From NCBI GenBank assembly GCA_964187785.1, contig OZ076409.1:15440001-15504000 (forward strand): 64,000 nucleotides of DNA, read 5' to 3'. The notes beneath the pieces are model-generated. The model was not told the DNA's origin and did no database searches. It was given only the letters and a program-made list of their open reading frames with translations. The position numbers were made by a program, and so were the translations under genes. Each line of letters starts with the position of its first letter. Position 1 is the first letter of the stretch. Source of the DNA: Amphiscolops sp. MND2022 (taxonomy: Eukaryota). This document shows, piece by piece, positions 5,776 through 53,200 of the stretch.

Positions 5776-6482
5776 ATGGAGCAAACTTCGTTTACAACTC
5801 TGATTGGTTCTGCAAGTGGTAAGCAGCTAACATCTATACTTTTACTCTCTACAAATTCCTCTATAGAAAACTCAGTTTGTTCAGATCTTATCAACGATAT
5901 AAAGAATATGGGGAAAAGATATTTGCACGAGCAAAAAGAAAATCAAAATTTAATGGCAAGTAAGTAAACATTTGTTTTTCCAAAAAATTGTACCATTTTC
6001 GAAACTTTCCATTCCATGCTTACTTTTTCAGAATATTCAAAACTGGAACAACAAAACGAAGGTGAGCCTATGTTTGGATTTATATCAACCAATATCAAAC
6101 GTCTAAAATCTATCAAAACGGTTTTAGAGCTGAAGAAGGAGCTGAAAGTAACACGCCTCAAGCTCGCTGCAGAAAAATCGCGCACGTTCAAATTGAAGAA
6201 AGGTTCACTATGGTTTTGAATACCCAATATTTGAATGAAATAAATGACATGACTCACATGAAATTTGTTTAGATTCTGAAACCTTAGCGACAGCCCGAAC
6301 ACGTTAGTCATATAATTGTTTTTCAAAAAATCAAATTTTTGGAACATTTTGCTATGCTCTGTAGGTTCCTTTGTTTCGTGAAACACATCTTCCATAATAA
6401 AAATTAATGATGTCTTATTGTTTCAGTTTGCCTGCAAATGGAGTACAGACACTTCAAAAGACGACATTCAGCTTCGTTTTAA
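5776..6482 (+). CDS. Putative spliced accessory gene, unknown product (copy of 21577-22283)
   Basis: Duplicate of the exon set at 21577 onward (offset 15801). Confidence 0.35.
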
Positions 6483-7082
6483 GATTGACATTTTGCTATA
6501 CATTATTGAAAAAATCTCTTCAATGTGTTTTTTCCTTCGATGTAAAAAAAGGATAGTCAGTTTACAGCTGGATTATGAATAACGCGAGGTTTCCTTTTTT
6601 TCGCATCCGTGAGGTAGAATACTTTCCATCAGTTAATCATAGCATTCTGCAGAGTCTGTAAAACGCAGTCAAAGTTTCAATTTTTCATACGCCTTATCTG
6701 CGTTTTGGTATTCAGGCATCTTAATGTATCAAAAAAGGTCGAGTCATTAAGACGGTGTTCGGTAATACGGAAATACTTTTCACAACTTGTCACTCTTTTT
6801 GTTTTTACAGCTTCTTATCTTTTTCAGAGAAAGTGGCTCTTCCATTAACTCTACAATGAATGCTGAACAAAATGCTGAAACGGTAAGAGGACATCTGTTT
6901 CTTTGATCTCATTATACATATATAAAGGGAGACCGGACAAATTCGCTGATTGGTTGAGATACGCTCGGTGATACGCGCTGCTGCAAAACAGTTCAAAAGA
7001 AGATTCCGAGGTACGCTGTAAGAAAATATGTTGCTGACTTTCGAAATAGACGACGTTTCAGATTATCCAGCTCTAATCAACA

Positions 7083-10000
7083 GTGGATAGCGTAGAGGTT
7101 GCGTGTTAGACTCTCAACCCAATGTCTTGAGTTCGATTCCCGCCATCGATCGTTTTTCAAAAAAATTGTCAGCGTGAACAGTCTTTTAAAAGCATTCGTG
7201 TTCTTCTTTTCCCCTAATGGTGCGCTTGCAACTACTGTTCAGCAAGATAACGTGGCCTAGAGGTTGCGTTGGTTGTCAGGTTCGTTCGGGTGTTATTCTG
7301 GTAGCTTTGGGTTCGATCCCCGGGATGGACATGGTTTATAACTTGAATTGATGAATTGATAGTGTTATGGTTTAAAGCCAACTTGATTGTTCATTTCGAC
7401 ACAAACCGTATATAGGACTCTAAGTTCGTTAGAAATTTGAATAAAATTGCATACTTTGGAAGCGGCAAATTTTTCAATTTAGGGATATTTGGAATCTTTC
7501 TAATAACGTTGTCCATTTTTTCACCTTTTCAACAGTCAATGGCGTAGTGGTTGCGTGTTAGATTTCCATTCCAATGTCTTGAGTTCGATTCCCTCGATCA
7601 AGATTTTTTTAAAATTTCTCCGCGTGGACAGTCTTTCAGAAGCACTGGATTATTCCACTCACTTAGTGGTTTGCCTAAAACCACTGTTTCGCAAGATATC
7701 GTGGCCTAGAGGTTGCGTGTTAGACTCTCAACCCAATGTCTTGAGTTCGATTCCCGCCATCGATCTTTTTACAAAGAAAATTGTCAACGTGAACAGTCTT
7801 TTAAAAGCTTTGGTGTTCTTCTTTTTCCTTAATGGTGCGCTTGCAACTACTGTTCAGCAAGAGATCGTAGCCTAGAGGTTGCGTTGGTGTCAGGTTCGTT
7901 CGGGTGTTATTCTGGTAGCTTTGGATTCGATCCCCGGGTTGGACATGGTTTATAACTTGAAATGATAGTGTTATGGCTTAAACCCATCTTGATTGTTCAT
8001 TTCGACACATGCCGCGTATGGGACTCTAAGTTCGTTAAAAATTTGAATAAAATTGCTTACTTTGAAGCGGCAATTTTTTCAACTTATGGATTTTTGGATT
8101 CTTTCCAATAACGTTGTCCATTTTTTCACATCTTTTCAACAGTCAATGGCGTAGTGGTTGCGTGTTAGATTTCCATTCCAATGTCTTGAGTTCGATTCCC
8201 TCGATCAAGATTTTTTTTAAACATTTCTCCGCGTGGAAAGTCTTTCAGAAGCAATGGATTGTTCCACTCACTTAGTGGTGCGCCTAAAACCACTGTTTCG
8301 CAATATATCGTGGCCTAGAGGTTGCGTGTTAGACTCTCAACCCCATGTCTTGAGTTCGATTCCCGCCATCGATCTTTTTTCAAAAAAAATTGTCAGCGTG
8401 AACAGTCTTTTAAAAGCTTTGGTTTTCTTCTTTTTCCTTAATGGTGCGCTTGCAACTACTGTTCAGCAAGAGATCGTAGCCTAGAGGTTGCGTTGGTGTC
8501 AGGTTCGTTCGGGTGTTATTCTGGTAGCTTTGGGTTCGATCCCCGGGTTGGACATGGTTTATAACTTGAAATGATAGTGTTATGGCTTAAACACATCTTG
8601 ATTGTTCATTTCGACACATGCCGCGTATAGGACTTTCAGTTCGTTAAAAATTTGAATAAAATTGCTTACTTTGGAAGCGGCAAGTTTTTCAACTTAGGGA
8701 TTCTTGGATTCTTTCCAATAACGTTGTCCATTTTTTCACATCTTTTCAACAGTCAATGGCGTAGTGGTTGCGTGTTAGATTTCCATTCCAATGTCTTGAG
8801 TTCGATTCCCTCGATCAAGATTTTTTTTAAACATTTCTCCGCGTGGACAGTCTTTCAGAAGCAATGGATTGTTCCACTCACTTAGTGGTGCGCCTAAAAC
8901 CACTGTTTCGCGAGATATCGTGGCCTAGAGGTTGCGTGTTAGACTCTCAACCCAATGTCTTGAGTTCGATTCCCGCCATCGATCTTTTTTCAAAAATATT
9001 TGTCAGCGTGAACAGTCTTTTGAAAGCTTTGGTGTTCTTCTTTTTCCTTAATGGTGCGGTGCGCTTGCAACTACTGTTCAGCAAGAGATGGTGGCCTAGA
9101 GGTTGCGTTGGTTGTCAGGTTTGTCCGGGAGTTATTCTGGTAGCTTTGGGTTCAATCCCGGGATTGACATGGTTCAGCAGTTGAATTGATAGTGATATGG
9201 CTTTAACCCAATTTGATTGCTCATTTTTACACATACCGAATATAGCATTATGAATTCTTCCAAAATTTGAAATGGAATGCTTACTTTGGAAACGGCTAAA
9301 ACTTCAGCATAGTGACTATTTGGACATTCTTTCCAATGACGTTGTCCATTTTTACATCGTTTCAACAGTCAAAAGCGTAGTGGTTGCGTAATAGATTTCC
9401 TTTCCAATGTCTTGAGTTCGATTCCCTCGATCAAGAATTTTTAAAAAATTTGTCCGCGTGGACAGTCTTTCAGAAGCACTGGATTATTCCATTCACTTAG
9501 TGGTGCGCCTAAAGCCACTGTTTCGCAAGATATCGTGGCCTAGAGGTTGCGTGTTAGACTCTCAACCCAATGTCTTGAGTTCGATTCCCGCCATCGATCT
9601 TTTTTTTGAAAAAATTGTCAGCGTGAACAGTCTTTCAAAAGCATTGGTGTTCTTCTTTTTCCTTAATGGTGCAGTGCGCTTGCAACTACTGTTCAGCAAG
9701 AGATCGTGGGATAGAGGTTGCTTGAGTTCAAATCCCTTAGTCAACTTTTATTTTACGAAGAGAGTGATTGTGGTTCAACAACATTGGCACCGAAGTTAAA
9801 CCACGTTTTTTGACAAAATCGAAAAACCTCAAAATTATAACAACATTAGTTAACGACAAATGCAGATAACAATCTTTGGAGGGCAACATGAATTACATCA
9901 TGGTTTTCGCGGACGCCTTTTCTATAGGCTATGTCTATTTTTTCCATCTTTTCACTTTGATCTACTTTGCAACAGTGTCACCGAAGTTAAAACTCACTTT

Positions 10001-22655: not shown

Positions 22656-25600
22656 ATGAATGCTGAACAAAATGCTGAAACGGTAAGAGGACATCTGTTT
22701 CTTTGATCTCATTATTCTGGAACGACTTGTCAAAACAGTGTCGTTTCTTTTCAGGAAGTCCCTCGCAGATCGCGAGGTCGTCCCCGTTCTAGCAATCCTA
22801 GCATTGAAGCAGTTCAAAGACGACGAAGAAGGGGTGACGCGCAACCTCCGTTAGGCCTTCAATCTCTGTGTTTTTTAGCGGACTCGGATTCAGTTCTCGA
22901 TAGTTTTGTTGGCAAAATTGGGGACGTGATATGTCCACATTGTGATGCTTTTTTGTTCAAGCAAGAGACTCACTCAATTTGTTGTAATCGAGGTTCCATC
23001 CGGATTGATTGTTTCCCTGAACCTCCGCCTTTTCTGAAATACCTTTGGACTACTCAGAATCAAGATGGAGTTGTCTTTCGGAAGTATGCGAGGCAGTTAA
23101 ACAATTGTTTAGCTCTAGCTTCTGTTTATATGAAAAACCTAACTGCACCTGGCTCAAGGTATCAACCAACTGTAATCATTCAAGGTAAAACGTACACACT
23201 CTTGGGACCCTTGCAAGGAGAGCACAATCAGCCACCGAAATTTGCTCAACTTTATGTTCACGATTCCAGCAATGAACGAATACTAGACCAACGGATGAAA
23301 ATTCTAAAGGCATCATCTCTGTCTCACTCAGATGTTGTCATACTTCGCAACATTGTTGATCAACTCCAAGTAAATTCTTTACGTGATAACGAGAAACCAG
23401 TGTGTTTTATAAACTAATTTTTCCTTCTTTACAGATGGAATTAAGCGAAAATCACTCCTACATTCCCGACTTCCTCCAAGTTTGCCAATTTCCCGACCAC
23501 GCGGTTGAAGGTTTACAGTTTCATATCAACCCAAACAGAAGACCCCAGAACGAACATGCACGGAGGTACAACTTGAGTCTGAAAGAAGTTTCGGTTCTCA
23601 AAGACAGTGAAAGCAATGCTGATGCGGGCTTCGTGCTGCGGAAACGTGGGGGTGGTCTCACAACCATCTCTGAAACTCATAGATCGAAAGATCCCTTGCA
23701 TTTCGTCCTATTTTTCCCGCATGGAACAGATGGTTGGCATAATCAATTGAAGCAAAAGTACGTTTTTGATATATCAAATTGAATTGCGTCAATCTTTTTG
23801 CCAAGTTTTTGGTATCTTGGCAAATTGCTACGTCCCGTAAAACAAACTTTGGATACGCAGAAAAGAAGTAGTTGAAAGTATGTGTGATACTTTTTGACTA
23901 TCGTTGTTTTGTTTTAGCTCAGAAAGCTCCAAAGCACTGTCCTGTAAAGAATATTATGCATACATTTTGCACAAGCGACCTCCGACAGTGAATTACCTTC
24001 ACTTTGGAAAACGACTTTACCAAGAGTTTCTGTGCATGGCATGGTCGTCTGTTGAAGCACAAAGACTTATGTTCATACGCAGTCATCAACAGCAATTGCG
24101 AGCTGATCTGTATTGCAATTTGATGGACAATCCTCATTCTTCTGTTTCTGAAGGTGGCAAGTTGGGAGTCAGAAGAATTCTTCCACCGTCATTTGAAGGT
24201 TCTCCAAGAGATCGTAACAGACGGTTAGGTTTGTTTCAGTTTAATTATCTTGTGACGTATTGTTTTTTCCTTAATAAATATGGTTTAGGTATCTTGATGG
24301 ACTAGCTGTTTGTCAAAAGTTTCACAAGCCCGATCTCTTCATTACTTTCACGTGTAATCCCAAGTGGCCTGGAATTCTGACGAGCTTGAAAGAGAACCAG
24401 TTAGCTGAGGACCGCCCAGACATAGTAGCTCGCGTATTCCATTTGAAACTCAAAGGGTTGATTCAAGATCTGAGGCACAAAGGTAAAACAACACTTTTTG
24501 TACTAAAATCCTTTCCTGGTGAACCTAATTGTTCCGAAAAAAATTTTCTTTCTCATTCGTTTAGAAGTTTTTGGAAAAGTGCTCGCTATCATGTCAGTTG
24601 TGGAATTCCAGAAACGTGGGTTACCTCATGCACATATCTTATTAATACTCTCATCGGACGTTTCGGCCTTCATCTCAAATCAGTTAGACAGTATTGTCAC
24701 TGCAGAAATACCATCAGTTGACGGAGTTACACCTGACAGACGCGAGCGTCAGAGTAAACTTCTCACGTTGGTTCAAACCCATATGATGCATGGACCTTGT
24801 GGCTCCTTGAATGATAAAAGTCCGTGCATGAGCAACGGAAAATGTACAAAAAAATACCCCAAAAAGTTTCAACAACAAAGTTCATGTCTTGCTGAAACAG
24901 GCTATCCCATGTATAGAAGAAGATCACCTGAAAATGGAGGACATGTTGTGAGCGTTAAAGGGCACACACTAGACAATCGTTTTGTTGTTCCCTACAACGC
25001 GTTTCTTCTCCTCAAGTATCAAAGCCATTTGAATGTTGAAGTTTGCGCTAACGCATTGGCAGCAAAACATCTTTATCTGTACATCACAAAGGTTAGATGT
25101 CAAAATTAGCTAAGTGTAAGTTTCCTTTGACAATACATCTTCGATAGCTTTTGACGTTTTGCTTCACATGCTGCGCCAATTTTTGATATTTTCAAGGGAC
25201 TTTTCTCAATCTAACGTAATGCAGATTAATCTGATCCCTTATGGTTCCGTCCTTGATTTCTTTTCTCTTCTTTACAGGGGGGTGATCGGTCCATGGTTAA
25301 TATTGCAGATGACACAAATACCGATGAAATTGAAAGTTTCCGTGACATGAGGTCCTTTGGGGCAAGTGAAGCTGCTTATCGGTTGCTTGGTTTGGACATT
25401 CATTATCGCCATCCATCAGTGTATGCCCTGCCTGTCCATCTTGAGAGAAGACATTTAGTATTGTTCAGTGACTCTTCCAACCTGTCGACCTCAACAACTT
25501 TGCACAAGACAGAGCTGACGGAATTTTTTGCCTTCAATGCCAAAAACCCTTCATGTGTCATTAAATACTTGGTATTTCCTGAACACTTTATATGGAGTAA

Positions 25601-27776
25601 AACCAGCAAAAAATGGGTTGAACGAAAAGTAAACACTGGAACAATTGGCAGAATCAATGTTGTTTCGCCAGCAGCTGGAGATGTCTTTTACTTGAGAATA
25701 TTGCTCAACATGGAGCATTGCACAGGTTTGTTAATTTGATACGTCATTGTTTGTCTTCGGGTTTCTCACTAACAAATTCTGTTCAGGTAAAAAAAGCTTT
25801 GATCACTTGCTTGAAGTAAACGGGACAAAATACAGCAGCTTCCAAGAAGTTTGTCGAGTCCTTGGTTTGCTGAAAGACGACAATGAGTGGATGCATCTTT
25901 TAACCGAAGCCGCATTCACCAACACCAGCGCAAAAATGCGGCAACTTTTTATTATATTGCTCATGTTTTGTGAAGTCAGCAACCCGTTAGAACTTTTTGA
26001 ATTGCACTATCTATCCATGTGTGAAGATTTTCCTGAAAGCCAATGTGAACTTGATCGTAGATCTTGGGTCCTCCTCCAGTTGCAAAAGTATCTTCATGCA
26101 TTCGAAAAGTCATTAGTTGATTTTGGTTTTACATTACCAACGGAAATGCACTCTGTGAATCAGGACTGCAATTATCGTTTTGATGAAGAAAGGGTACGAA
26201 GAACTCAACTGAACCAATCAGAAATAAGTCGAAGTGTTGCTCAGTTGAATAGTGAACAAAGAGTGTTCTTTGACACAGTTGTGGGGTCCTTGATTCCTGA
26301 CAGCCAGTGTCGTTGTTTTTTTCTAGATGCCCCTGGTGGCACAGGAAAGACATTCACTCTGAATGTCCTTTTGGCTACTATTCGTTCAAATGGCAATAAC
26401 GCAATAGCTGTGGCGACCAGTGGTATTGCAGCTGCCTTACTTGATGGTGGTAGAACATTCCACTCGAAACTGAAGTGCCCATTGAAGGTCGACAACGACA
26501 CTCATCTCTCAATTCCTGCACAGTCTGATCTAGCTGATTACATAAGGTCTGTTAAAGTTATAGTTTGGGATGAAGCTCCAATGGCAAACAAGCAGTTGTT
26601 AGAGTGCTTGGACAGAAGTCTTCGTGATATCAATTGCAACAATGATCCCTTCGGTGGCAAAGTAGTGGTGCTAACTGGTGACTTCAGACAGGTTTTGCCA
26701 GTTTTGAAAGGAGGTTCCAGGGCCCAAATTGTGGGTGCAGCTTTGAAAAATTCTTCTCTATGGTGCCTCTTCAAGACGTTTCAGCTGACTAAAAACATGC
26801 GTCTGCGTGCGACTAACCTTTATTTTGGGCAATGGCTGCTCAAAGTGGGAAACGGCGAAGTCGAAGTTGACTTGGAAGGCCGACTGAGAATTCTACCTTC
26901 GCTGGTACTTCCCACAAGACCATCTATGTCCAAACACGATCGTGCTGAAGTTATTGCTGACTGGGCTTTTGGCACTGACGTGAGTATCAGTTTTTATTAG
27001 GAAGCTTTTCTATTATCTGATTAAAAAATTTTCATGATGTTTCTTCAGTCTCCATCAACTGCAACTCCGCGATGCAGAACGGTCATTTTGTGTACTACCA
27101 ATAAGTCAGCAGAATTCATTAACAGCAAAGTTATTCAGAAAATGCCAGGTTTGTTCTGAAAGTTTGAAAGATTTGGATTGAATCGGTTAGGTATGGTTTT
27201 ACCTTTTATACATTTTTAGGCCAATTCTTCGAATGCCGAAGCGCTGATAGAACACTGGAAGTAGCGGACCAATGTAGATTTCCCGTGGAATATCTCAACA
27301 CATTGAATCCATCTGGTCTTCCACCACATACGTTACAACTGAAACCAGGTTGTTTGATCATTTTGCTGCGTAATCTTAACCCATCTCTCGGTTTGTGTAA
27401 CGGAGCGAGGTTGATTCTAATCACAATAAGCAGACATAGTTACCTCGAAGCTACTTCGATTGGTGGAAACCTTTCTGGGTCGGACGTGTTGATACCACGT
27501 ATCGATTTGACTACAGAACAAGACTTCGACATGCCAGTAACTTGGGTTAGAAGACAATTTCCCATACGTCCCGCATTCGCAATGACAATCAACAAAAGTC
27601 AGGGTCAAACTTTTGACAAAGTTGGTTTGTACTTAGAAGAACCTGTATTTTCTCATGGTCAATTGTATGTTGCTTTGTCCCGATGTTCATCTGCTGCCAA
27701 CCTTAGATTACTTTTACCACCCAAAGATGATGGCACTTTTTGGATGAAAAACGTAGTTTACAAAGAAATTTTTTGA
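22656..27776 (+). CDS. Helitron RepHel protein (AT-hook, Cys/Zn motif, HUH Rep endonuclease, Pif1 helicase); 10 exons, 1429 aa
   Basis: Exons 22656-22682, 22755-23369, 23435-23757, 23918-24223, 24289-24482, 24565-25091, 25278-25725, 25787-26979, 27049-27148 and 27220-27776 join through GT-AG introns into 4290 nt in one frame. Motifs: RRSRGRPRS, CPHC...CC, PDLFITFTCNPKW, VEFQKRGLPHAH, DAPGGTGKT, VWDEAPM, GDFRQVLPV, FAMTINKSQGQT, HGQLYVALSR. Start codon is tentative. Confidence 0.93.
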
Positions 27777-28101: not shown

Positions 28102-28130
28102 GCCGCCGTAGGCGGCAACGGGTCTGCTAG
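28102..28130 (+). other. Helitron 3' terminal hairpin and CTAG
   Basis: gccgccgtaggcggc aacgggtctg ctag|t. Confidence 0.9.
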
Positions 28131-28690
28131 TCAGGCTAAAAGCAAAGAGTCAATTTTTGGAGCGCGAGACTCCTATCTGCGGTACGGACTTACCATTACC
28201 AGCCAAAAACTTGTTTTGAGGAGAAATTCTCATGAAAAGACGACGTTTCAAGTTATTGACATCTGATGAAACAAAAATATTCCAGAAAAATTGTGAGAAA
28301 GCAAAATTTTGACTCTATTACGAAAATGTATGCTGAAAAGCATAAATTAGTAAGCTTAAAAATGAAATTCCATGTATTATCAAAAGTCGACTCAGGAGTG
28401 TGAAAAACACGTTTTAGGGGTAATTTTGGGCCCTCTTTCCAATGCCGTTGTCCGTTTTTTGCTATCTGTTCATTTTGACCCCTTTTGCAAAACTGTCACC
28501 GAAGTTAAACCACATTTTGTGAAAATAGTAAAAATGACATAACTCAATGAAAATTCAAGTGATGGCGGCGAAAATTTCAGCATGGGGGTTTTTTTGGACG
28601 CTCTTTCTAATGGCGTTGTCCGTTTTTTGCTATCTTTTCAATTTGACCCCTTTTGCAAAACTGTCACCGAAGTTAAACCACATTTCTGAC

Positions 28691-28696
28691 AAAAAA
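28691..28696 (-). terminator. Pol III terminator (T6) of 5S gene; also at 31234-31239
   Basis: aaaaaa on + strand directly adjoining the 5S 3' end. Confidence 0.8.
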
Positions 28697-28814
28697 GGCT
28701 ACAACACCTGGTGTTCCCAAGCGGTCTCCCATCCAAGTACTAACCAGGCCCTATGTTGTTTAACTTCGGTGATCGGACGAGAACCGGTGCATTCAACATG
28801 GTATGGTCGTAGCC
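28695..28814 (-). rRNA. 5S rRNA
   Basis: Minus strand reads GGCTACGACCATACCATGTTGAATGCACCGGTTCTCGTCCGATCACCGAAGTTAAAC...AGTACTTGGATGGGAGACCGCTTGGGAACACCAGGTGTTGTAGCCTT; stem I GGCTACGAC/GTTGTAGCC; box C intact. Confidence 0.97.
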
Positions 28815-28841: not shown

Positions 28842-29042
28842 TGCTTAACAACAAAATTACGTACAATGATACGAAAATTTTCTCGGTCAAAATACGCGTA
28901 ACTTTTAAGTTAGTGCAGACTAGCTTGTTCCTTGTTCAAAAAATTGGGCAGCAGACCACTTTCGCAGTCTGCTTTCAAATAAAACTTATCAATAGGGTTG
29001 GAATACTTACCTATTTAATAAGTTTATCACAACAATTAGGCT

Positions 29043-30662
29043 TTTAAAGATTGTATTGGACCTTTTAATGTATAAATCAAATAGTCTTTATAGTAAGTCT
29101 AAGTACAAATTGTATAAAAGATATAAACGGTATAAAAGGTGTACAGAGTACTGTATAAGAGTATGAAAAAGTACTGAGTGAAAAATTGAAGCTTGTTTGA
29201 AAGTTCAGGCAAAAAAGAACGTTGTTTTTTTGAAGAAATTAGTATAATGTAGTCTTGAGTATGTGGGGTAAAAGTGATGTTTGCTCCTGGATGGAGTTAT
29301 TGGATCAAACTGTTTTTTGGCTTTTTTAATAGCATGGTATTGAACTTTAAAAGACTTGGGATTTGAGGGTGTAGCATATCAAGGAGTGGGTTTTGAGTTA
29401 TTTGTGTTTGTTACAAAAAATAGCATCAATCTTGTTTTTCAAATGGGATAAAGTCATATCTAACTTTTCCTTGGAGATTTACTAAATAAATGATGTTCTC
29501 GGGTTTGTAAAAGAAGGCATCCAGTCTTCCTTTGATGTATTTGAAGGCATCGTAGTTGGCGATCTTTGAAGAGGAGGTTCGGCTTCTCCACTCTTTGTCT
29601 TCAAACATCTCTTGTTGTGCTGATTCCGATAGTTTTTGGACATATCTTAGTTGGTTAACAACAACTTTTTTATCGTTAATGATGTTGATATCACCTCCTT
29701 TGTGATCACATTCTGCTAGTTTAGGATATTTTGATTCCATTCTGTTGACAGTTTGAATAATTTCGTTGTCCACATCGAGGTAAAACGGTAAAAAAGCAAA
29801 ATCGGGATCCACTTTCGTGGCTTTGTTTTCAGGTTCATCAGCTGACTCCTCCTCCTCCTCAGAAGGTATTGGCTCAGTATCTTCTTTGCTAAGATTGTTT
29901 TTTTGTGTAGAGTGATGTTTGCATTGCTTCTTATGATGGCCCATAAATTGGCGTTTTCCTTCGTTACAATTCTCACATTGTAACAAGGTTTGAATGTAAC
30001 ATTTGAAGGGAATTTCATTAGTAACAAACTGGTTCAAAAAGGCTTGTTGGTTCCATGATTTGATGTTTTCTAATTGGCATTGATTGGCAATCTCTATTTC
30101 AGCATAACAGATTCCAGTAAAGGCTTCGATGTCGTCAGAAATTCTTACTCTTTGGTGGCGTAATTTGGAAATTTTGTACTCTTGCAGATTACAAGCCTCC
30201 ACAATCTCTCCATCTTCTAAAAAGTGTGGTAAATTGCGGAATTTCAAAGTGAATTGCTTTGGGTAGGAGTTAGAATTTACATCACTGTTTTGGAATGCAT
30301 AAATTATCCGGTTTTTGTAAGGAATTCCTTTAAGAAGTAGGTTTTTGAAGTCGTTTTCTATCGAGTTTGGAGCAATAATTTTGATGCATTCAAGCTTCTT
30401 TTCATGCTCATGCGCTGGCGCATGTTTGGACACGTACGATTTAATGCATGTCACGCTGTCAATATGAGTAGGCGATAAAGCATGTAAAAGCTTGCAAAGG
30501 AATTCTTTGTAAACAGCTTTCTTTATGTTTGGGCTGGTAATTTCTTCTTTTGTGTAAGGAATGATGAATTCTGCTGTCAATAAAGGCATTGTTCAGGTAA
30601 TTTTCGTCTTCTCTGCCGCAGCAGTGAGAGTAGAGTTAGCAAATAATCGCTGACACACGCAG
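29043..30662 (-). mobile_element. Non-autonomous ORF1-only non-LTR retroelement (L1/Tx1-like) in the 5S spacer
   Basis: Flanked by perfect 18-bp direct repeat TATCACAACAATTAGGCT (29025-29042 and 30663-30680); 73-nt 5' UTR, single ORF, 3' UTR with ATTAAA ending ...CTTTAAA. Confidence 0.8.
29426..30589 (-). CDS. L1/Tx1-type ORF1 protein (RRM-like region, CCHC-variant knuckle, acidic linker), 387 aa, intronless
   Basis: FTLKFRNLPHFLEDGEIVEAC...FTGICYAEIEI resembles the Tx1 ORF1 RRM; CENC-x9-H-x4-C knuckle; no RT or endonuclease motifs. Confidence 0.72.
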   Translation of the reverse strand: MPLLTAEFIIPYTKEEITSPNIKKAVYKEFLCKLLHALSPTHIDSVTCIKSYVSKHAPAHEHEKKLECIKIIAPNSIENDFKNLLLKGIPYKNRIIYAFQNSDVNSNSYPKQFTLKFRNLPHFLEDGEIVEACNLQEYKISKLRHQRVRISDDIEAFTGICYAEIEIANQCQLENIKSWNQQAFLNQFVTNEIPFKCYIQTLLQCENCNEGKRQFMGHHKKQCKHHSTQKNNLSKEDTEPIPSEEEEESADEPENKATKVDPDFAFLPFYLDVDNEIIQTVNRMESKYPKLAECDHKGGDINIINDKKVVVNQLRYVQKLSESAQQEMFEDKEWRSRTSSSKIANYDAFKYIKGRLDAFFYKPENIIYLVNLQGKVRYDFIPFEKQD

Positions 30663-31237
30663 TATCACAACAATTAGGCTAAAAGCAAAGAGTCAATTTT
30701 TGGAGCGCGAGACTCCTATCTGCGGTACGGACTTACCATTACCAGCCAACAACTTGTTTTGAGGAGAAATTCTCATGAAAAGACGACGTTTCAAGTTATT
30801 GACATCTGATGAAACAAAAATATTCCAGAAAAATTGTGAGAAAGCAAAATTTTGACTCTATTACGAAAATGTATGCTGAAAAGCATAAATTAGTAAGCTT
30901 AAAAATGAAATTCCATGTATTATCAAAAGTCGACTCAGGAGTGTGAAAAACACGTTTTAGGGGTAATTTTGGGCCCTCTTTCCAATGCCGTTGTCCGTTT
31001 TTTGCTATCTGTTCATTTTGACCCCTTTTGCAAAACTGTCACCGAAGTTAAACCACATTTTGTGAAAATAGTAAAAATGACATAACTCAATGAAAATTCA
31101 AGTGATGGCGGCGAAAATTTCAGCATGGGGGTTTTTTTGGACGCTCTTTCTAATGGCGTTGTCCGTTTTTTGCTATCTTTTCAATTTGACCCCTTTTGCA
31201 AAACTGTCACCGAAGTTAAACCACATTTCTGACAAAA

Positions 31238-31357
31238 AAGGCTACAACACCTGGTGTTCCCAAGCGGTCTCCCATCCAAGTACTAACCAGGCCCTATGTT
31301 GTTTAACTTCGGTGATCGGACGAGAACCGGTGCATTCAACATGGTATGGTCGTAGCC
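31238..31357 (-). rRNA. 5S rRNA (copy 2)
   Basis: Same sequence as 28695-28814. Confidence 0.97.
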
Positions 31358-31585
31358 GATCATTGTAAAATCAATAGCTTTATATGCTTAACAACAAAAT
31401 TACGTACAATGATACGAAAATTTTCTCGGTCAAAATACGCGTAACTTTTAAGTTAGTGCAGACTAGCTTGTTCCTTGTTCAAAAAATTGGGCAGCAGACC
31501 ACTTTCGCAGTCTGCTTTCAAATAAAACTTATCAATAGGGTTGGAATACTTACCTATTTAATAAGTTTATCACAACAATTAGGCT

Positions 31586-32618
31586 TTTAAAGATTGTATT
31601 GGACCTTTTAATGTATAAATCAAATAGTCTTTATAGTAAGTCTAAGTATAAATTGTATAAAAGATATAAACGGTATAAAAGGTGTACAGAGTACTGTATA
31701 AGAGTATGAAAAAGTACTGAGTGAAAAATGGAAGCTTGTTTGAAAGTTCAAGCAAAAAAGAACGTTGTTTTTTTGAAGAAATTAGTATAATGTAGTCTTG
31801 AGTATGTGGGGTAAAAGTGATGTTTGCTCCTGGATGGAGTTATTGGATCAAACTGTTTTTTGGCTTTTTTAATAGCATGGTATTGAACTTTAAAAGACTT
31901 GGGATTTGAGGGTGTAGCATATCAAGGAGTGGGTTTTGAGTTATTTGTGTTTGTTACAAAAAATAGCATCAATCTTGTCTTTCAAATGGGATAAAGTCAT
32001 ATCTAACTTTTCCTTGGAGATTTACTAAATAAATGATGTTCTCGGGTTTGTAAAAGAAGGCATCCAGTCTTCCTTTGATGTATTTGAAGGCATCGTAGTT
32101 GGCGATCTTTGAAGAGGAGGTTCGGCTTCTCCACTCTTTGTCTTCAAACATCTCTTGTTGTACTGATTCCGATAGTTTTTGGACATATCTTAGTTGGTTA
32201 ACAACAACTTTTTTATCGTTAATGATGTTGATATCACCTCCTTTCTGATCACATTCTGCTAGTTTAGGATATTTTGATTCCATTCTGTTGACAGTTTGAA
32301 TAATTTCGTTGTCCACATCGAGGTAAAACGGTAAAAAAGCAAAATCGGGATCCACTTTCGTGGCTTTGTTTTCAGGTTCATCAGCTGACTCCTCCTCCTC
32401 CTCAGAAGGTATTGGCTCAGTATCTTCATTGCTAAGATTGTTTTTTTGTGTAGAGTGATGTTTGCATTGCTTCTTATGATGGCCCATAAATTGGCGTTTT
32501 CCTTCGTTACAATTCTCACATTGTAACAAGGTTTGAATGTAACATTTGAAGGGAATTTCATTAGTAACAAACTGGTTCAAAAAGGCTTGTTGGTTCCATG
32601 ATTTGATGTTTTCTAATT
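31586..32618 (-). mobile_element. Second copy of the ORF1-only element at the same spacer site, cut by the gap
   Basis: Same 3' junction next to the target motif at 31568-31585. Confidence 0.8.
31969..32618 (-). CDS. ORF1 protein copy 2, C-terminal part (N-terminus in the gap)
   Basis: Matches the C-terminal half of the 387-aa ORF with 4 amino-acid differences. Confidence 0.72.
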
Positions 32619-32818
32619 NNNNNNNNNNNNNNNNNNNNNNNNNNNNNNNNNNNNNNNNNNNNNNNNNNNNNNNNNNNNNNNNNNNNNNNNNNNNNNNNNN
32701 NNNNNNNNNNNNNNNNNNNNNNNNNNNNNNNNNNNNNNNNNNNNNNNNNNNNNNNNNNNNNNNNNNNNNNNNNNNNNNNNNNNNNNNNNNNNNNNNNNNN
32801 NNNNNNNNNNNNNNNNNN
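32619..32818. other. Assembly gap (200 N)
   Basis: Run of N; true size unknown. Confidence 1.
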
Positions 32819-35800
32819 CCATCTTCTTCATGATGATATATTTTTCAGATTGACTCCTGAGTTAGACCGATTCTTCAATGCAAAAGATGCTGAATTCGCT
32901 AATCCTAACTTTCTCACCACTCTTATTCCACAGTTGATGCTTCCTTAAATGGTTTAGGTATAAAAATATTTCATTCAAACAAAATGCAAGTTATCTCTTA
33001 TAACTCCGGTTTTTACCAATTCAAAAACAAAAACATTCCACCTCCCACCACCGAGAACTCTGTGCTATAACTTTTACAATCACCACATCTGAGTCTATTA
33101 TTATTGATTCACAACATCCTACAATTTTTTTCACTGATCATATCCATATTTTATTTCTTTTCACCCGCAAAAGAAATCTTACACTGCGGTACTATAAAGT
33201 TCAAACGGTAATAACAAACTTTTGAAACATTCGAATCTTTCATATTGGGGGTACTAGTTGAACTGTTGATGATATGGTCAGTAGAAGTTTCTCAACAGTT
33301 ACAAACAAAACATGTCCCTTTTAACGGAAACCTCTACCGCCACGTATTGAAGTTACACAGTTACGAACAAACAACTCTTTATATTGAGTGCATTAACTAA
33401 GGAAATATGAAACAAAAGTTTTCCGACTCGATAAAAAAAGATTCACACCAAACCCCTGCTGGTTACGGTGATGATCAATTCACACTTCGAATCGAAGATA
33501 AGGTAACACCGTTACATACACTGCACTTGATTCCTTTTCATTTCAATTTTTTTATCTTCTTGAACAAAAATAAGAAACCCATTATAAACAAAGTCAACAC
33601 TTGATTTCAACAAAACCCATTATATTACGAAACTGACTCATATGAAGACGATGATCCGGTTTGTAAGCGAAGTCCACAACAAAGTCTCACATCAACTGAA
33701 GCTCCTCCTATTTTGAATCATCATCCAATGAAGTTTAACACCAAAATCATCAAGAGCCTCATCCTTCTCAAGAAATAGTAACATCCTAAAATTCCTTCAT
33801 CAAGCTCCGAAATAAATTTTAAAACAATTACTATTACTCAAACAAACTCCTTTTAAAACCAACTCCACTCAATTTTTATCAAGGTTTGACCCATACTTCT
33901 TTGCTCATTTCAAATAATGTTTCAAACTTCTTCCATCTCGGACACACAGTCTGAAAAATACCTATTCTTTCACAGTCTCAAAATTTGTTTAGGTTGATTT
34001 TGATAGAACCCATTCCCATAGACAGTCCGGTGAAAAACGTTCGATGAAAAATATCTATCTTCATGCACTTCATTACATACCACACCTACTGTTTTGGTTA
34101 TCCACCTTTATTCATGATTGCGTTGAATATCAAACAAATAAACACTTCCCATTACACGTAATAAAATTTCTCTTCCCTCGCCATTTTTAGAAAACACCAC
34201 TCATTTTAATTACAGAATCTCAATGATGGATACAAAAGGACCTTTATCTCACTAACGCGTCAAAGGACTCTTGTTTTTTGTAAACATCAACGCTTCCAGT
34301 CATTTTGTCGTCACGAACTCAACACCTCAATTTTTTTTCCAAATTTGCAGTACAAACATTCCCAAAACATTTTATCACTAAACTTGGCCCCCATCAAAAC
34401 CTAGTAACAGATAGAGGGACTGAAAGATTTGGTCAAGGTATGGCACAGCTTTGCTCTCTTTTCAATATCAATCATACTCCACGCACTCCATATTCTCCTT
34501 CACCAAACCATTTAGGTGAAGTTCACAACTGTAACCTTGGAATCTATTTACGTTTATTTTTGCAAAACCCTCTTACCAATTGGTCAATTCAAACTTAAAT
34601 GTAAGCTTATGCACACAACTCTACCCCTCTTTTTGAACCTAAACTTTTTCATATCAAAATGTTTTTCACACATCCTCGTATTTCGGTAACCTTTTCTCTT
34701 AAGCTTGTACGTACTTCGTCAAATATAATATTGCTAGATAGTGACCCACTTCTTGATGATGATTATTATAGTGATCAAGATCTCAATACTTTCTTTCATT
34801 TCCCCATCAGTAAACCTATCTCTTCATGGCTTTTATCAGCAGAACAAGAAATGTTAAGAATATATTCTACTGTTCATCGCCATCTAACTGAAGAAAAAAC
34901 TCAAAAATTTCCTCATTTGAGGCGTTTCAATCTAAACAACTCTTCGCCAACACCTTTGTTTTTCATACCAGTTATGAAGCTGTTAAATTTTAAATCAAGC
35001 TCGAACTTCTTCGATTTGGCCTCAATGAAAGACCTAAACAACCTTCTGATATAACTAATGAACTTATGGCTTAGGATGGCTCTACACTCCATTGAAACCA
35101 TATTTTACCATATTATCCCAAGGAACCTCTCATCGTCCCAAATATTCATCAATTTCATTCAAAACCGTCTCTTATCAACAACCCTGATACTGGCTTTTAC
35201 CTAGACGATTTGTCGAGACGTTGACTATAGTCAACCTAAACCGCCTGCACCCCTCCAATTGAACACTTCGATTGAAATAATTCCTCAATATTGAGATTTT
35301 TTACACTCACCTCGTAACTATTAGAAATGTTCTGATCCTGATCTCACAAAAGACATCTTAAAGACCAGTTTTGACTCACTCGATTCACATTTTAAAAAGC
35401 TCCAAAGTCCAATATGTAAACCTACTTCTTCTGATACAGCACCTTATCCTTCTAAAAAACTCCTTCTTTTCCAACAAATCTACCCAAGCAGTCCTGATTC
35501 TCCAGAATTTAATCTTAAGCACTTACAGGATAATCAAACACAACTCACTCACTTTAGAGCTCCTCATTCACCCTATAGGTTACGGTCACTCACACGGAAA
35601 ACTTATAACTAATCCCAACATGGTTTCAGTTTCTCTCTTTTAAAAACAAATCAAACACTACTTGCATTACAATATCTGACATGAATTATCATTGCACATT
35701 GTCTAGACACATCATTACGCTCACATCTAGCCTTTCATAGGACCATTTTACCATCATTTGATTATAGACTTCTGAGTGCGCAGTCGACTAATCAATCTTT

Positions 35801-44833: not shown

Positions 44834-45415
44834 TTGATCGGGAATAACGTACCCATTGATATTCAAATTGCAACGCATGGAGCAAAATTCGCAATCAAAG
44901 CGAGCCAGCAGTACCAAGACGATCGCGTTTACTGCCTTTTTAATAACAGCAATTCACCCATCATCAAGAAATTAATTGCAGATAGCAGAAGGTTCGGCTC
45001 ACCCCTGTTTTACAGTCAGGAATCAATGAAGGAGTTAACTTACAGAAGATGGAACGACCGAATTAGAAACCTAAATCTGTCTGGAAACACTGGATTAAAA
45101 GCCAAAATTGAAGGAGTGTTACCCAAGCATTTGAGTAAAGCTCATACTAGACGAATGGTGCAACTATTGACAGAGCATAGCAACCTTGGTTATTTCCAGT
45201 TTTTGATAGGAAGATGTTTCTCACCAGTGTGCACATGTTTGAATGCAGAAGAAACAACTGCTCATTTCTTTTACCGATGCCCTTTTTATTCAAATCTACG
45301 ACGCCTTGAACCACCCAAGAAATTGGAGGAATTGTTACAGAGCTGTGGGTGGGAGAACTGGGAATCAACTTTATGTTTTGTGAAGCTTTCGCGACGCCTG
45401 GATAAAGCAAAATAG
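44834..45415 (+). pseudogene. C-terminal fragment of a non-LTR retrotransposon ORF2 (Cys/His finger)
   Basis: VQLLTEHSNLGYFQFLIGRCFSPVCTCLNAEETTAHFFYRCPFYSNLR matches the LTGH...SPxCxC...ETxxH...CP pattern of R1/I-group LINE C-termini. Confidence 0.7.
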
Positions 45416-50251: not shown

Positions 50252-53200
50252 ATGGATGATGTTCTGTTCTCTCGTCTTAACCAAATTGGAGCCGATTCCG
50301 ACGCCCTGAGAGCCAAAGGATGTGATGAGAACGTTAGTTGATTTTCTATCAAGTCATGATATGCTTTTTCTAGTAAAGACAGCCCATTCATTATACGAAG
50401 ACTTTGAATGACGAGGAATCTTACGGGTTTAAGTGCTACGAATTATGCTAGCCTTTGTACAACAATTCTGAGACGCTCTGAACAAAGTGAAGCCATGTCT
50501 TCGTGCGCTAAATTCTCAAGGTCTTCTGATAAATTACCTCTGTTGGAATTTTTCAAAAACATCGGCCCAATTGTCTTTGGGAGTAGCAAGCTCGTAGCCC
50601 TATACTTACTTTAACCAACGGAAACAATTTGTTTGTTCGCGTGGATAAACCAAGCTCTAAATTTTTGGACATTGCAAGCTCGCCTACCACTGTGGTAGGG
50701 CCAGCCATGTTTTGTAAATTACTTTTCACAGTACTGGTTGTTGACAATGCTTCAGACAATAGACACACGGAGTCGGCAGGTTTTACCTCCAATTCGAGTA
50801 GCCCCATCTCCTGTACCGCAGTTCCGATACAGGCGAACTAAGAAAGCCGCTGTGCATTATGCAGATCTGCGTAGTGATCTTGTTCAAAAGCCGTCCGATG
50901 AGCAACACAGCATCCTAGAAGATGTGGCCGCCAAAGTTAAATCGAGGTCTGAAGTTCTGGAATCTAGAAATCGAAGCCAGCAGAAGACACCCAGTCGTGT
51001 CAGCTCTGCCAAATCAAATGTCTCCGATGACGACATTGTGAAGTCACTACTCGCGGAAGCAGGTTGGAATTTCTCATACAGCGTTTCCTAAATTTGCATC
51101 CGGTGAAGTTAGCTCTATTTGTGACTCTATTTCAAGTAATTTGTTTTTTTTTTGCCGAAATAAATGGCAATTGCGCAAGCATCTTTTAAGAAACCTTCAT
51201 AACAGTAATTGAACTGAAACCAATACGTTGCAAAACTTGCCCAAATAGAGGTCGCAATGGTCTGAAAATTGGTTTTACAATTCAGCTGTAAGAATAGGAC
51301 ATTGCTTGTATTATAATAATATTCCTGCTAAAGCAGAAATATTAAAAATAGAGAAATTTAAAAACTATTCGTATACTATCACCTGAGCTCATGTATATTG
51401 TAACTTCTTTATGAATGCCATATCAAACAAGTCTCTGCTGCAATTCGATAGAGACTGTCAATCGAAACGTTCAAAATTCTGAAAGAGACTACGCTGGGCT
51501 AACAAGTGGAACGATAAAAATGAAAGGAAAGCAGCATTTAGAGAATATATGTATTTTCTTAGGCAGAAAAGAAGCAATTGGATTGTTGATACATTCGAAC
51601 TTGAGAAGGAAACAGTCTGAAAACCCCTAGTGGGCTTTTTTCAAGAAACTGGACAGTAAAGATGAAAGAATACCTGTTGAAATAACAAAAATGTATAATC
51701 ACTTTAAAAATCTCAATTCCACGAATGTTTGCTCTCAAACCTGGAATTTGGACATAAATCTAAATGATAAATTGAACAAAGCCTTAACAGAAAATGAGGT
51801 GATTAAATGTATGAAAAAAATTAAGAACGGTAAGTCATCTGGTCTCGATAATATTTATCCGGAGTTTATCAAGTATCTTCCCGACTCCCTAATAAATGTA
51901 ATAACTAAATTCTTCGATCGAATACTAGAAACGACTGAAGTACCTGACGAATGGGCCATCTCAATCTACCAACCCGTTTTTGAAAAAGGTAACAGAAATG
52001 ATCCAAACAACAACAGGGGGATCTCGCTTTCGAGCTGCCTATGTAAACTTTTTACTGCGCTTCTCACTGAAAGGATACAAAATGATCTAGAAAAAAGAAA
52101 TGTGTTAGGGAGAGAACAAGCGGGATTTAGAAAAAAACATGGGCTGTACGGACCAAGTTTTTCTTTTAACATCACTCATCTCACTATACCTGGCCATTAA
52201 GGAAAATTGTTTCTGACTTTCATTGATCACGAGAAAGCATTTGACCGTGTTGACCACGGCTTATTATGGAAAAAATGCAGTCGGTCAACATACATGCAAG
52301 AGTGTTGGAAGTAATAAGAAACCTATATCAGAAAACGAAAGTATGTGTTAGAGTCAATGGAGAACTTACAGACGCATTTAAATATCGAATGGGTGTACGA
52401 CAAGGGGACACATTGTTACCTCTTCTGTTTATAATTTACATTAATGATTTTAAAAATTCTATTAGTCGGAAGTTCTCAGGAATCGAACTGCAGTCAGAAA
52501 CTAGTATAAATACGGATCTCTCAGATCTCGAAATGTGGGTAAAGATGTACGCTCTTCTATATGCAGATTATATCGTGCTTATGAGCGAAAGTGAACTTGA
52601 TATGCAAAAAGAACTCGACGCAACAGCAGAATACTGTATGGAAAACAATATGAAAAGTAGTGTTTTTGAGACAAAAATTTATGATATGTTCACTTGGGAA
52701 AGTTAGAACATATTCCGATGTCTTTGTGTATGGCACACCAATTGAACGTGTTGATTCCTTTCTGTATTTGGAAATTGTTGTCAAGATTAATAACACTTTT
52801 CAAACAACCATAAAAAACAATGTGGACAAAGCTAAAAAGGTATTAAATAAACTAGCAGTCTATTCGGGTAAAATTGAATTAAGAAACACAACTACATCTT
52901 TTCGACGCATTGATCAAGCCTATTTTATTGTACAGCTGTGAGGTGTGGGGATATGAAAATGTCGAACAAATTGAAAGTTTCCACCGAAATTTTTCTGAGA
53001 AATTACGAAATAGGAACGGTGCCCCTAAAGCAATGATTTACGGTGAATTAGGAGACCAGAGATGAAGTTTTCAATCTGGCAAAGAATGGCAGCCCACTGG
53101 AAAAAAATTAACATGAACAGTCCCCCCGAAACATGAAACTTCCCGATATGATTCTCAAATGGCTAAACTTAATCAACTATGAAACTAAGTGTTTGCAAGG

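Follow-up and report, generated by a model that had tools for sequence, protein, structure and literature searches.

A 1620-bp segment upstream of a 5S rRNA gene of Amphiscolops sp. MND2022 is bounded by a perfect 18-bp direct repeat, encodes one protein, and recurs in the next 5S unit. What fixes the position of such an element, and how is it copied, when the open reading frames of the 1620-bp body include no reverse transcriptase (RT) or endonuclease frame? In the window, by which we mean the entire 64,000-nucleotide stretch analyzed here, the element body (29043..30662, minus strand; a member of what we call family A, bearing a window-type 3' tail) lies between a 5' repeat at 30663..30680 and a 3' repeat at 29025..29042, both on the minus strand, and the same 18-mer recurs at 31568-31585. 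The body is composed of a 73-bp 5' untranslated region (30590..30662), a 387-aa frame, ORF1 (29426..30589), and a 3' untranslated region (29043..29425) whose final ~55 nt are a tail exchanged among variants, all on the minus strand. The 5S genes of the two units (28696..28814 and 31239..31357, minus strand; 117.5 bits each) start 211-228 bp from the repeat. The 3' part of the second element copy (31586..32618, minus strand), which differs from the first at 8 of 1943 bases, is ended by a 200-N assembly gap at 32619. A sequence-only reading had described the three 18-mers, the body, the 5S genes, the frame with its zinc knuckle, and the gap-cut copy, and all of these coordinates were confirmed. 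Its proposal of a non-autonomous, ORF1-only, site-specific retroelement is likewise supported. A chance repeat was rejected; the 17-mer core has three exact matches in the window versus 0.17 expected allowing up to three mismatches.

The repeat proved to be the start of a spliced-leader (SL) exon, a point missed in the sequence-only reading. On the minus strand the 3' repeat continues through the remainder of a 31-nt exon to a GT donor, after which come a strong hairpin and an Sm-like site rich in U; the 119 nt fold with a z of -3.6. In unit 1 a complete SL RNA coding sequence lies behind the element (28925..29041, minus strand), with the exon at 29041-29011, the GT donor at 29010, the hairpin, and an Sm-like U-run at 28945-28936. 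Unit 2 contains the equivalent sequence at 31468..31584 (minus strand; exon 31584-31554), overlapping the third 18-mer. Judged from its sequence, this locus is an SL RNA gene, with leader exon, GT donor, hairpins, and Sm-like site. The window exon is an exact match, minus the final A, to the published trans-splicing leader of the acoel Symsagittifera roscoffensis (PMC9911081), and SL addition has been noted in a further acoel (PMC2481426); the match makes an acoel host likely. Independent support for the leader identity comes from dispersed exon matches, of which 20 were fetched: 17 show the 31-nt exon, ending at its AG, and then unrelated DNA without the SL intron, as would be expected of retrocopies of trans-spliced RNA; the other three are more decayed. 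The array unit thus consists of an SL gene plus a 5S gene, and the target duplication is leader nt 1-17 plus one A. At the 5' repeat this is the upstream A followed by exon nt 1-17, the leader-derived head of the element, and at the 3' repeat it is the last A of the tail followed by the same 17 nt. The claim that the element uses the 5S spacer without disrupting the gene is not supported: the site is the SL RNA gene, and insertion places 1.6 kb between the SL coding sequence and the DNA that had preceded it. The 5S gene is left untouched; the displaced SL copy is likely silent. Elsewhere in the window, SL nt 1-6 of the next unit (28131..28136, minus strand) have been cut away by a Helitron, and the remaining head of that unit, with another family A copy, lies 37 kb off, beyond the window.

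Units lacking the element, for which the sequence-only reading had proposed a search, are abundant. Genome-wide exact patterns returned 1142 intact promoter-side exons, or empty units, spaced at 904 bp, and 1309 promoter-side SL starts; taken together, these two counts, which come from two different exact patterns, indicate that about 13% of starts are interrupted or variant. Given the empty units, a host gene belonging as a fixed component to a 2543-bp unit was rejected. So was the retrocopying of a trans-spliced mRNA, since such retrocopies bear all 31 leader bases. Dispersed copies with unrelated flanks had been named in advance as evidence against a target-specific element; for family A none was seen, as all 23 leader-element 5' junctions genome-wide (5 on C1, 5 on C12, 11 on C13, and the rest on two small contigs) are within SL/5S arrays. 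In 629 kb of array DNA, sampled around protein matches and hence biased toward ORF1-only copies, an interruption was present at 90 of the 209 promoter-side starts. The 102 delimited inserts comprised 74 that were ORF1-only (A, 20; B, 8; C, 42; C2, 1; D, 1; K, 2), 22 with an RT motif, and 6 with neither. The site is shared by five or more related ORF1-only families and by six or more endonuclease-RT families of the L1 group.

An insert that was once mobile might by now be a mere passenger of array turnover, spread by unequal crossover and conversion. Array amplification does spread copies, as seen in near-identical filled runs such as six deleted A copies on C610, and the near identity of the window pair would fit such an origin. 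The divergence of elements and flanks, however, argues against it. Family A elements differ by 0.74-1.03% within a chromosome and by 0.75-0.95% between chromosomes, whereas their flanks, compared over 300 bp of spacer on the upstream side, are 0.5-0.8% apart within a chromosome and 7.5-10.3% apart between chromosomes. Elements are alike between chromosomes while flanks are some tenfold more diverged, and the element has therefore crossed between arrays on its own, without its flanks. The copies display the hallmarks of insertion, namely a 17-18 bp duplication, truncation, and a tail ending in four A. Furthermore, 5'-truncated copies and stacks of different families bear fresh duplications, with a new leader head parting each pair, and the 387-aa frame is kept in 15 of 19 full family A copies and is 390 aa in one more. 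We consider it very unlikely that these elements are now only passengers.

Autonomous elements reside at the same nucleotide. Families E, F, G, H, I, and J, each 4.9-6.0 kb with two ORFs, occupy the same SL site, and two further two-ORF families were each met there once. Every ORF2 scanned has an RVT_1 match at E 1e-29 or better; APE, which is N-terminal, and zf-RVT are matched less strongly. The one ORF2 tested against solved structures, that of family E, is closest to human L1 ORF2p (E 7e-55, versus 1e-20 for R2). We class the SL-site autonomous elements with the L1 group, as they possess ORF1 and an ORF2 with APE, an RT nearest to that of L1, and a C-terminal zinc motif. When relatives were sought by name for placement within Tx1, one of ten clusters was named, as 'pol-like protein', and no named Tx1 reference was among the relatives retrieved for the autonomous elements. 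Candidates thus exist for the autonomous APE-RT partner postulated in the sequence-only reading: such elements occupy the same site and, for some variants, have the 3' end in common. One more family was observed inserted further along in the SL gene.

The site could alternatively be set by distance from the 5S gene, through Pol III factor tethering as for TRE5-A at tRNA genes, the SL overlap being incidental. The distance from SL start to 5S start is a constant 226-229 bp in most units, so that position and sequence are confounded inside the arrays. Two observations separate them: 3' junctions are base-exact in all families, even in stacked copies 1.4-5 kb from the 5S gene, and GCC followed by non-SL DNA lies behind all five off-array copies with intact 3' ends (four of family M, one of C2). 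Targeting by 5S distance is accordingly very unlikely.

The 3' tails connect the ORF1-only elements to these neighbors, and sequence comparison indicates that tails are exchanged with autonomous families. Fifteen of the 19 full family A copies (variant A2) end in 43 nt identical to autonomous family J, two stop part-way through the J-type tail, and two have the window-type tail, which is similar to that of family B. Variant 2 of family C and family G have 26 nt in common, and variant 1 of C matches H at 32 of 35 positions. The tail of the window copies has no autonomous match among the eight families compared; a 19-nt motif from it has 15 matches in the genome, of which families A and B account for 14 and one is unexplained. 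Apart from the final 60 nt, stretches shared with any of the eight autonomous families reach 10-15 nt at most, which is background. Tail identities could arise either from template switching by the RT of a partner or from conversion beside the shared downstream SL. The shared site and tails suggest that mobilization in trans by a partner ORF2 protein is likely.

The 5' ends bear on where element RNA starts. ORF1-only family M is represented by four dispersed copies, three of which open at leader +1, carry 17 nt of leader, and lack array spacer in front of it; the first bases of the fourth are missing. A dispersed copy of autonomous family I retains leader nt 2-16. That off-array relatives begin at leader nt 1 points to transcription from the SL promoter. 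A target duplication was not found for the off-array family M copies. Among the matches listed, no close array copy of family M is present in the assembly, and its head may therefore be a fixed part of the element. The promoter itself presumably lies upstream of the SL gene, within the spacer at 30681..31238 (minus strand); promoters of the snRNA type sit upstream of the genes they drive, and R2 depends on transcription of its target (PMC4494074). On these DNA footprints, transcription of the element and its start at leader +1 are likely. Within arrays, full-length heads are 17 nt in families A, B, and C, 16 in G, 15 in E, and 11 or 13 in F, and truncated copies are joined at 17 in E, G, and C, at 18 in A, and at 16 in one J copy. 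This pattern of joins would fit nicking of the top strand near +17 and, in full-length copies, junctions determined by where the RNA-borne leader head anneals.

The reading we regard as probable, with good confidence, is that of an ORF1-only retroelement inserted after nt 17 of the SL exon in SL/5S arrays; the SL promoter likely drives its transcription, and the endonuclease-RT of a full-size L1-group element at the same site likely copies it. Transcription from leader +1 would yield an RNA with a 17-nt leader head, which the ORF1 protein would package. The ORF2 protein of a neighbor would then grip the 3' tail of this RNA, nick the bottom strand at the SL start, and reverse-transcribe, and a top-strand nick near +17 would generate the 17-18 bp duplication. 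The observed product reads, in order, upstream spacer, head, element, and complete SL coding sequence. Because the complete SL behind the element renews the target, elements stack.

What the ORF1 protein contributes was approached through its structure and descent. A structure model (61 sequences; mean pLDDT 84.4) predicts a pair of alpha/beta domains followed by a knuckle, an acidic, disordered linker, and a folded domain at the C terminus. By the model and fold searches, the first two are RRM-like (residues ~2-99, 30293..30586; residues ~108-201, 29987..30268; both minus strand) and resemble tandem RRM proteins (Foldseek E 2e-4 to 1e-3; VIA Z 5-6). The CCHC knuckle, C-x2-C-x9-H-x4-C (residues 205-223; 29921..29977, minus strand), is present in autonomous ORF1s too. 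The model lacks an N-terminal coiled coil, the RRM-like domains starting at residue 2, and human L1 ORF1p is absent among the Foldseek and VIA matches listed. Homology to ORF1, on which the sequence-only reading had staked its interpretation, was borne out: hhalign aligned residues 4-223 with the ORF1 of autonomous family H (probability 98.2, E 3e-14), and alignment ties the core to autonomous ORF1s, at 16-20% identity to those of the SL-site partners.

The C-terminal domain (residues ~267-387; 29429..29791, minus strand) sets the ORF1-only lineage apart. Modeled alone, its ~120 aa fold with a pLDDT of 87.6 and a pTM of 0.80. It is present in the ORF1-only families and in proteins of 381-477 aa from the database and is missing from the aligned autonomous ORF1s; in the alignment it is cut short in family D, and family M lacks the knuckle. 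Searches with it gave nothing recurrent in Pfam over 17 members, no usable match in Atlas, a best Foldseek E of 0.83 in PDB and 0.2 in BFVD, and a best VIA Z of 4.3 (rmsd 3.5, 71 aligned). Its first half matches the I-TevI DNA-binding domain and sCTP-23166 at Z 3.0-3.1, below usual noise; these searches do not establish a new fold. A profile search for an origin in ORF2 or autonomous ORF1 gave no significant match among those listed, the 25 weakest of 158 six-frame rows, with family E ORF1 at E 1.6-2, and a modeled complex with residues 1-761 of J ORF2 scored 0.03. Our best guess is that the extra domain assists the RNA-protein particle in acquiring the borrowed enzyme or in reaching the target. 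A fuller version, in which an old lineage of protein-coding LINE parasites obtains the SL promoter and cap through its 17-nt head, switches autonomous hosts by swaps of 3' tails, and captures ORF2 protein or the SL locus through a dedicated new domain, is possible, if rather doubtful; in that version, read-through into the complete SL behind the element could also cause the whole ORF1 to be trans-spliced to host mRNAs as a 1.6-kb leader.

A midpoint-rooted tree built from 47 core domains groups the 14 rows that are ORF1-only or bear the C-terminal domain (six from this genome and eight database proteins assigned by that domain) on one branch (97/88). The branch adjoins an autonomous element on C8 that lies outside the arrays (98/92), and the SL-site partners fall elsewhere. 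This separation, together with the 10-15 nt limit on shared non-tail DNA, excludes family A as a deletion product of the present autonomous neighbors. Database relatives of the protein are found at 80% and at 40-46% identity, and no 80% family is among the matches in this genome, which suggests that the lineage exists in other genomes. Between A and B, dN is 0.33 and dS 1.33 in the core, and dN is 0.54-0.59 with dS 1.97 or saturated in the C-terminal domain. Variants among the 15 intact copies comprise 19 synonymous and 31 non-synonymous changes (p 0.0016). As far as these sequences tell, the ORF1-only proteins are one old clade under purifying selection, in both core and C-terminal domain. 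Such selection, and the age of the clade, might mean that ORF1-only elements are tolerated or kept since their protein restrains full-size elements, as defective-interfering or half-domesticated agents; ZCCHC3 and L1TD1 offer a comparison. The nearest named Atlas clusters include ZCCHC3-like proteins (0.87-0.88), which is a lead only, and ORF1-only inserts predominate in the array sample, itself chosen around ORF1-only matches. However, selection would also be expected of a protein that works for its own RNA, a single fixed copy was not encountered, and the multiplicity of families, the exchange of tails, and the insertions outside arrays are consistent with selfish spread. A restraining role is thus unlikely, and we retain the trans-mobilized retroelement as our reading.

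Mammalian HAL1 proper derives from L1, encodes a coiled coil-RRM-CTD ORF1p, and has copies dispersed in the genome. As a non-autonomous L1 derivative encoding ORF1p alone (PMC5753468), HAL1 resembles the acoel element, which is also non-autonomous and ORF1-only. The acoel element differs in occupying one nucleotide of a multicopy RNA gene, with a leader-derived head and exchanged tails, and in a protein of RRM-RRM-CCHC plus an added domain, without an N-terminal coiled coil. Closer is TRE5-A.2 of Dictyostelium, which carries ORF1 without ORF2, is RNA-gene targeted, and is trans-mobilized by an APE-RT partner, TRE5-A.1, of which it is a derivative with its own promoter module, inserting in a window upstream of tRNA genes (PMC5391098). 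The acoel element, also ORF1-bearing, ORF2-less, and targeted to an RNA gene, has by contrast an ORF1 only 16-20% identical to those of its partners and a base-exact junction inside the gene. In trypanosomatids, CRE and CZAR are non-LTR elements specific for spliced-leader genes. SLACS, likewise of trypanosomatids, and NeSL-1, of nematodes, are also spliced-leader-gene elements (PMC8869645), and NeSL and related clades insert in the SL exon with a restriction-like endonuclease (PMC4640811, PMC8869645). The acoel elements use the same kind of target, but where the NeSL and CRE clades have a restriction-like endonuclease after the RT and no APE, the acoel partners possess an N-terminal APE and an L1-like ORF2 and support an ORF1-only lineage. 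Sequence-specific Tx1 elements, such as Keno in U2, are of the APE-RT type and occupy one fixed position in a small-RNA gene; the Fig. 3 legend of PMC4494074 names U2, U5, 5S, satellites, microsatellites, and transposons as Tx1 targets, and SL is not named in that legend. The acoel partners are like them in site and enzyme and are grouped with L1 by structure match. SINEU has an snRNA-derived 5' head and is short and non-coding, and R2 is autonomous, inserts in rDNA, and needs target transcription (PMC4494074); the acoel element differs from SINEU in coding for protein and from R2 in being non-autonomous and in an SL gene. The earlier view that this combination is undescribed is weakened by TRE5-A.2; the SL target, the leader head, an independent old clade whose proteins have a domain to themselves, and the exchange of tails with several partners still distinguish it. 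Among the openly searchable papers, we found no account of Tx1/L1 elements that target SL genes or of elements in acoel SL arrays. The parts of the combination are known from HAL1, TRE5-A.2, and NeSL/SLACS, and we found the whole in none of these papers.

These arrays represent a further, independent colonization of spliced-leader genes, by APE-type LINEs in an animal outside nematodes, in which at least 12 families compete for a single nucleotide. Because the ORF1-only elements have intact frames under selection, matched tails, and candidate partners, two standing questions become open to testing, namely why a non-autonomous element retains ORF1 and how trans-mobilization beats cis preference. 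The base-exact APE endonucleases of the partners, whose target is a 1000-copy, promoter-fronted locus, are candidates for targeted gene insertion in acoel models.

The spliced-leader (SL) exon also carries an inserted Helitron, which occupies positions 1-28130 of the window on the strand opposite to the exon, carries helicase frames at 24591-27775, and terminates at 28130 in a 3' hairpin followed by CTAG. The insertion separates exon nt 6 from nt 7. A second copy is found in the same genome (G000:C13, about 13198400-13209526), and both of the two copies genome-wide that possess exactly this Helitron end are located at nt 6/7. One copy resides in the leader-derived head of a family-A ORF1-only element and the other lies within an element of family C whose spacer is of another type. 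Since both the host families and the spacer types differ, the two insertions probably arose independently, and with two cases it is possible that the Helitron is site-specific for this position. Within the Helitron, window positions 1-22700 contain arrays of a repeat of ~610 bp as well as large duplications; parts of this region resemble the SL/5S spacer (28436-28706) at a level of ~70-76%. The spacer itself contains a 168-bp internal repeat (28417-28517 and 28585-28685), whose variable copy number yields SL/5S units of ~905, 1074, and 1242 bp and within which 20 nt are complementary to nt 43-62 of the 5S gene.

The SL gene has a second insertion site, used by a two-ORF APE-RT family whose 5' junctions fall close to nt 28 of the exon or at roughly nt 46 (loci L032:4379-9448, L038 from 7293, and L046). 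Outside the arrays, a 496-aa chimeric frame is present in two minus-strand copies (L071:3160-4647 and 6229-7719); its first part corresponds to the second half of an autonomous-type ORF1, and the rest comes from an ORF1-only protein, contributing RRM 2, the knuckle, and the C-terminal domain. The window also holds LINE RT fragments at 45026-45415 and 51691-52706 and, past the assembly gap, a decayed region at 32819-35100 that by eye resembles an LTR-retrotransposon pol/integrase region.

Many complete 31-nt leaders are dispersed immediately upstream of ORFs (loci L089-L110, e.g. L097, L098, and L104). Several of these ORFs open with cysteine patterns judged by eye to be PHD-like, and at L090 one leader-preceded frame is in tandem with an RT-like frame. 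The position of the leaders, the PHD-like starts, and the RT-like tandem suggest that these loci are retroelements or genes derived by copying of trans-spliced RNA.
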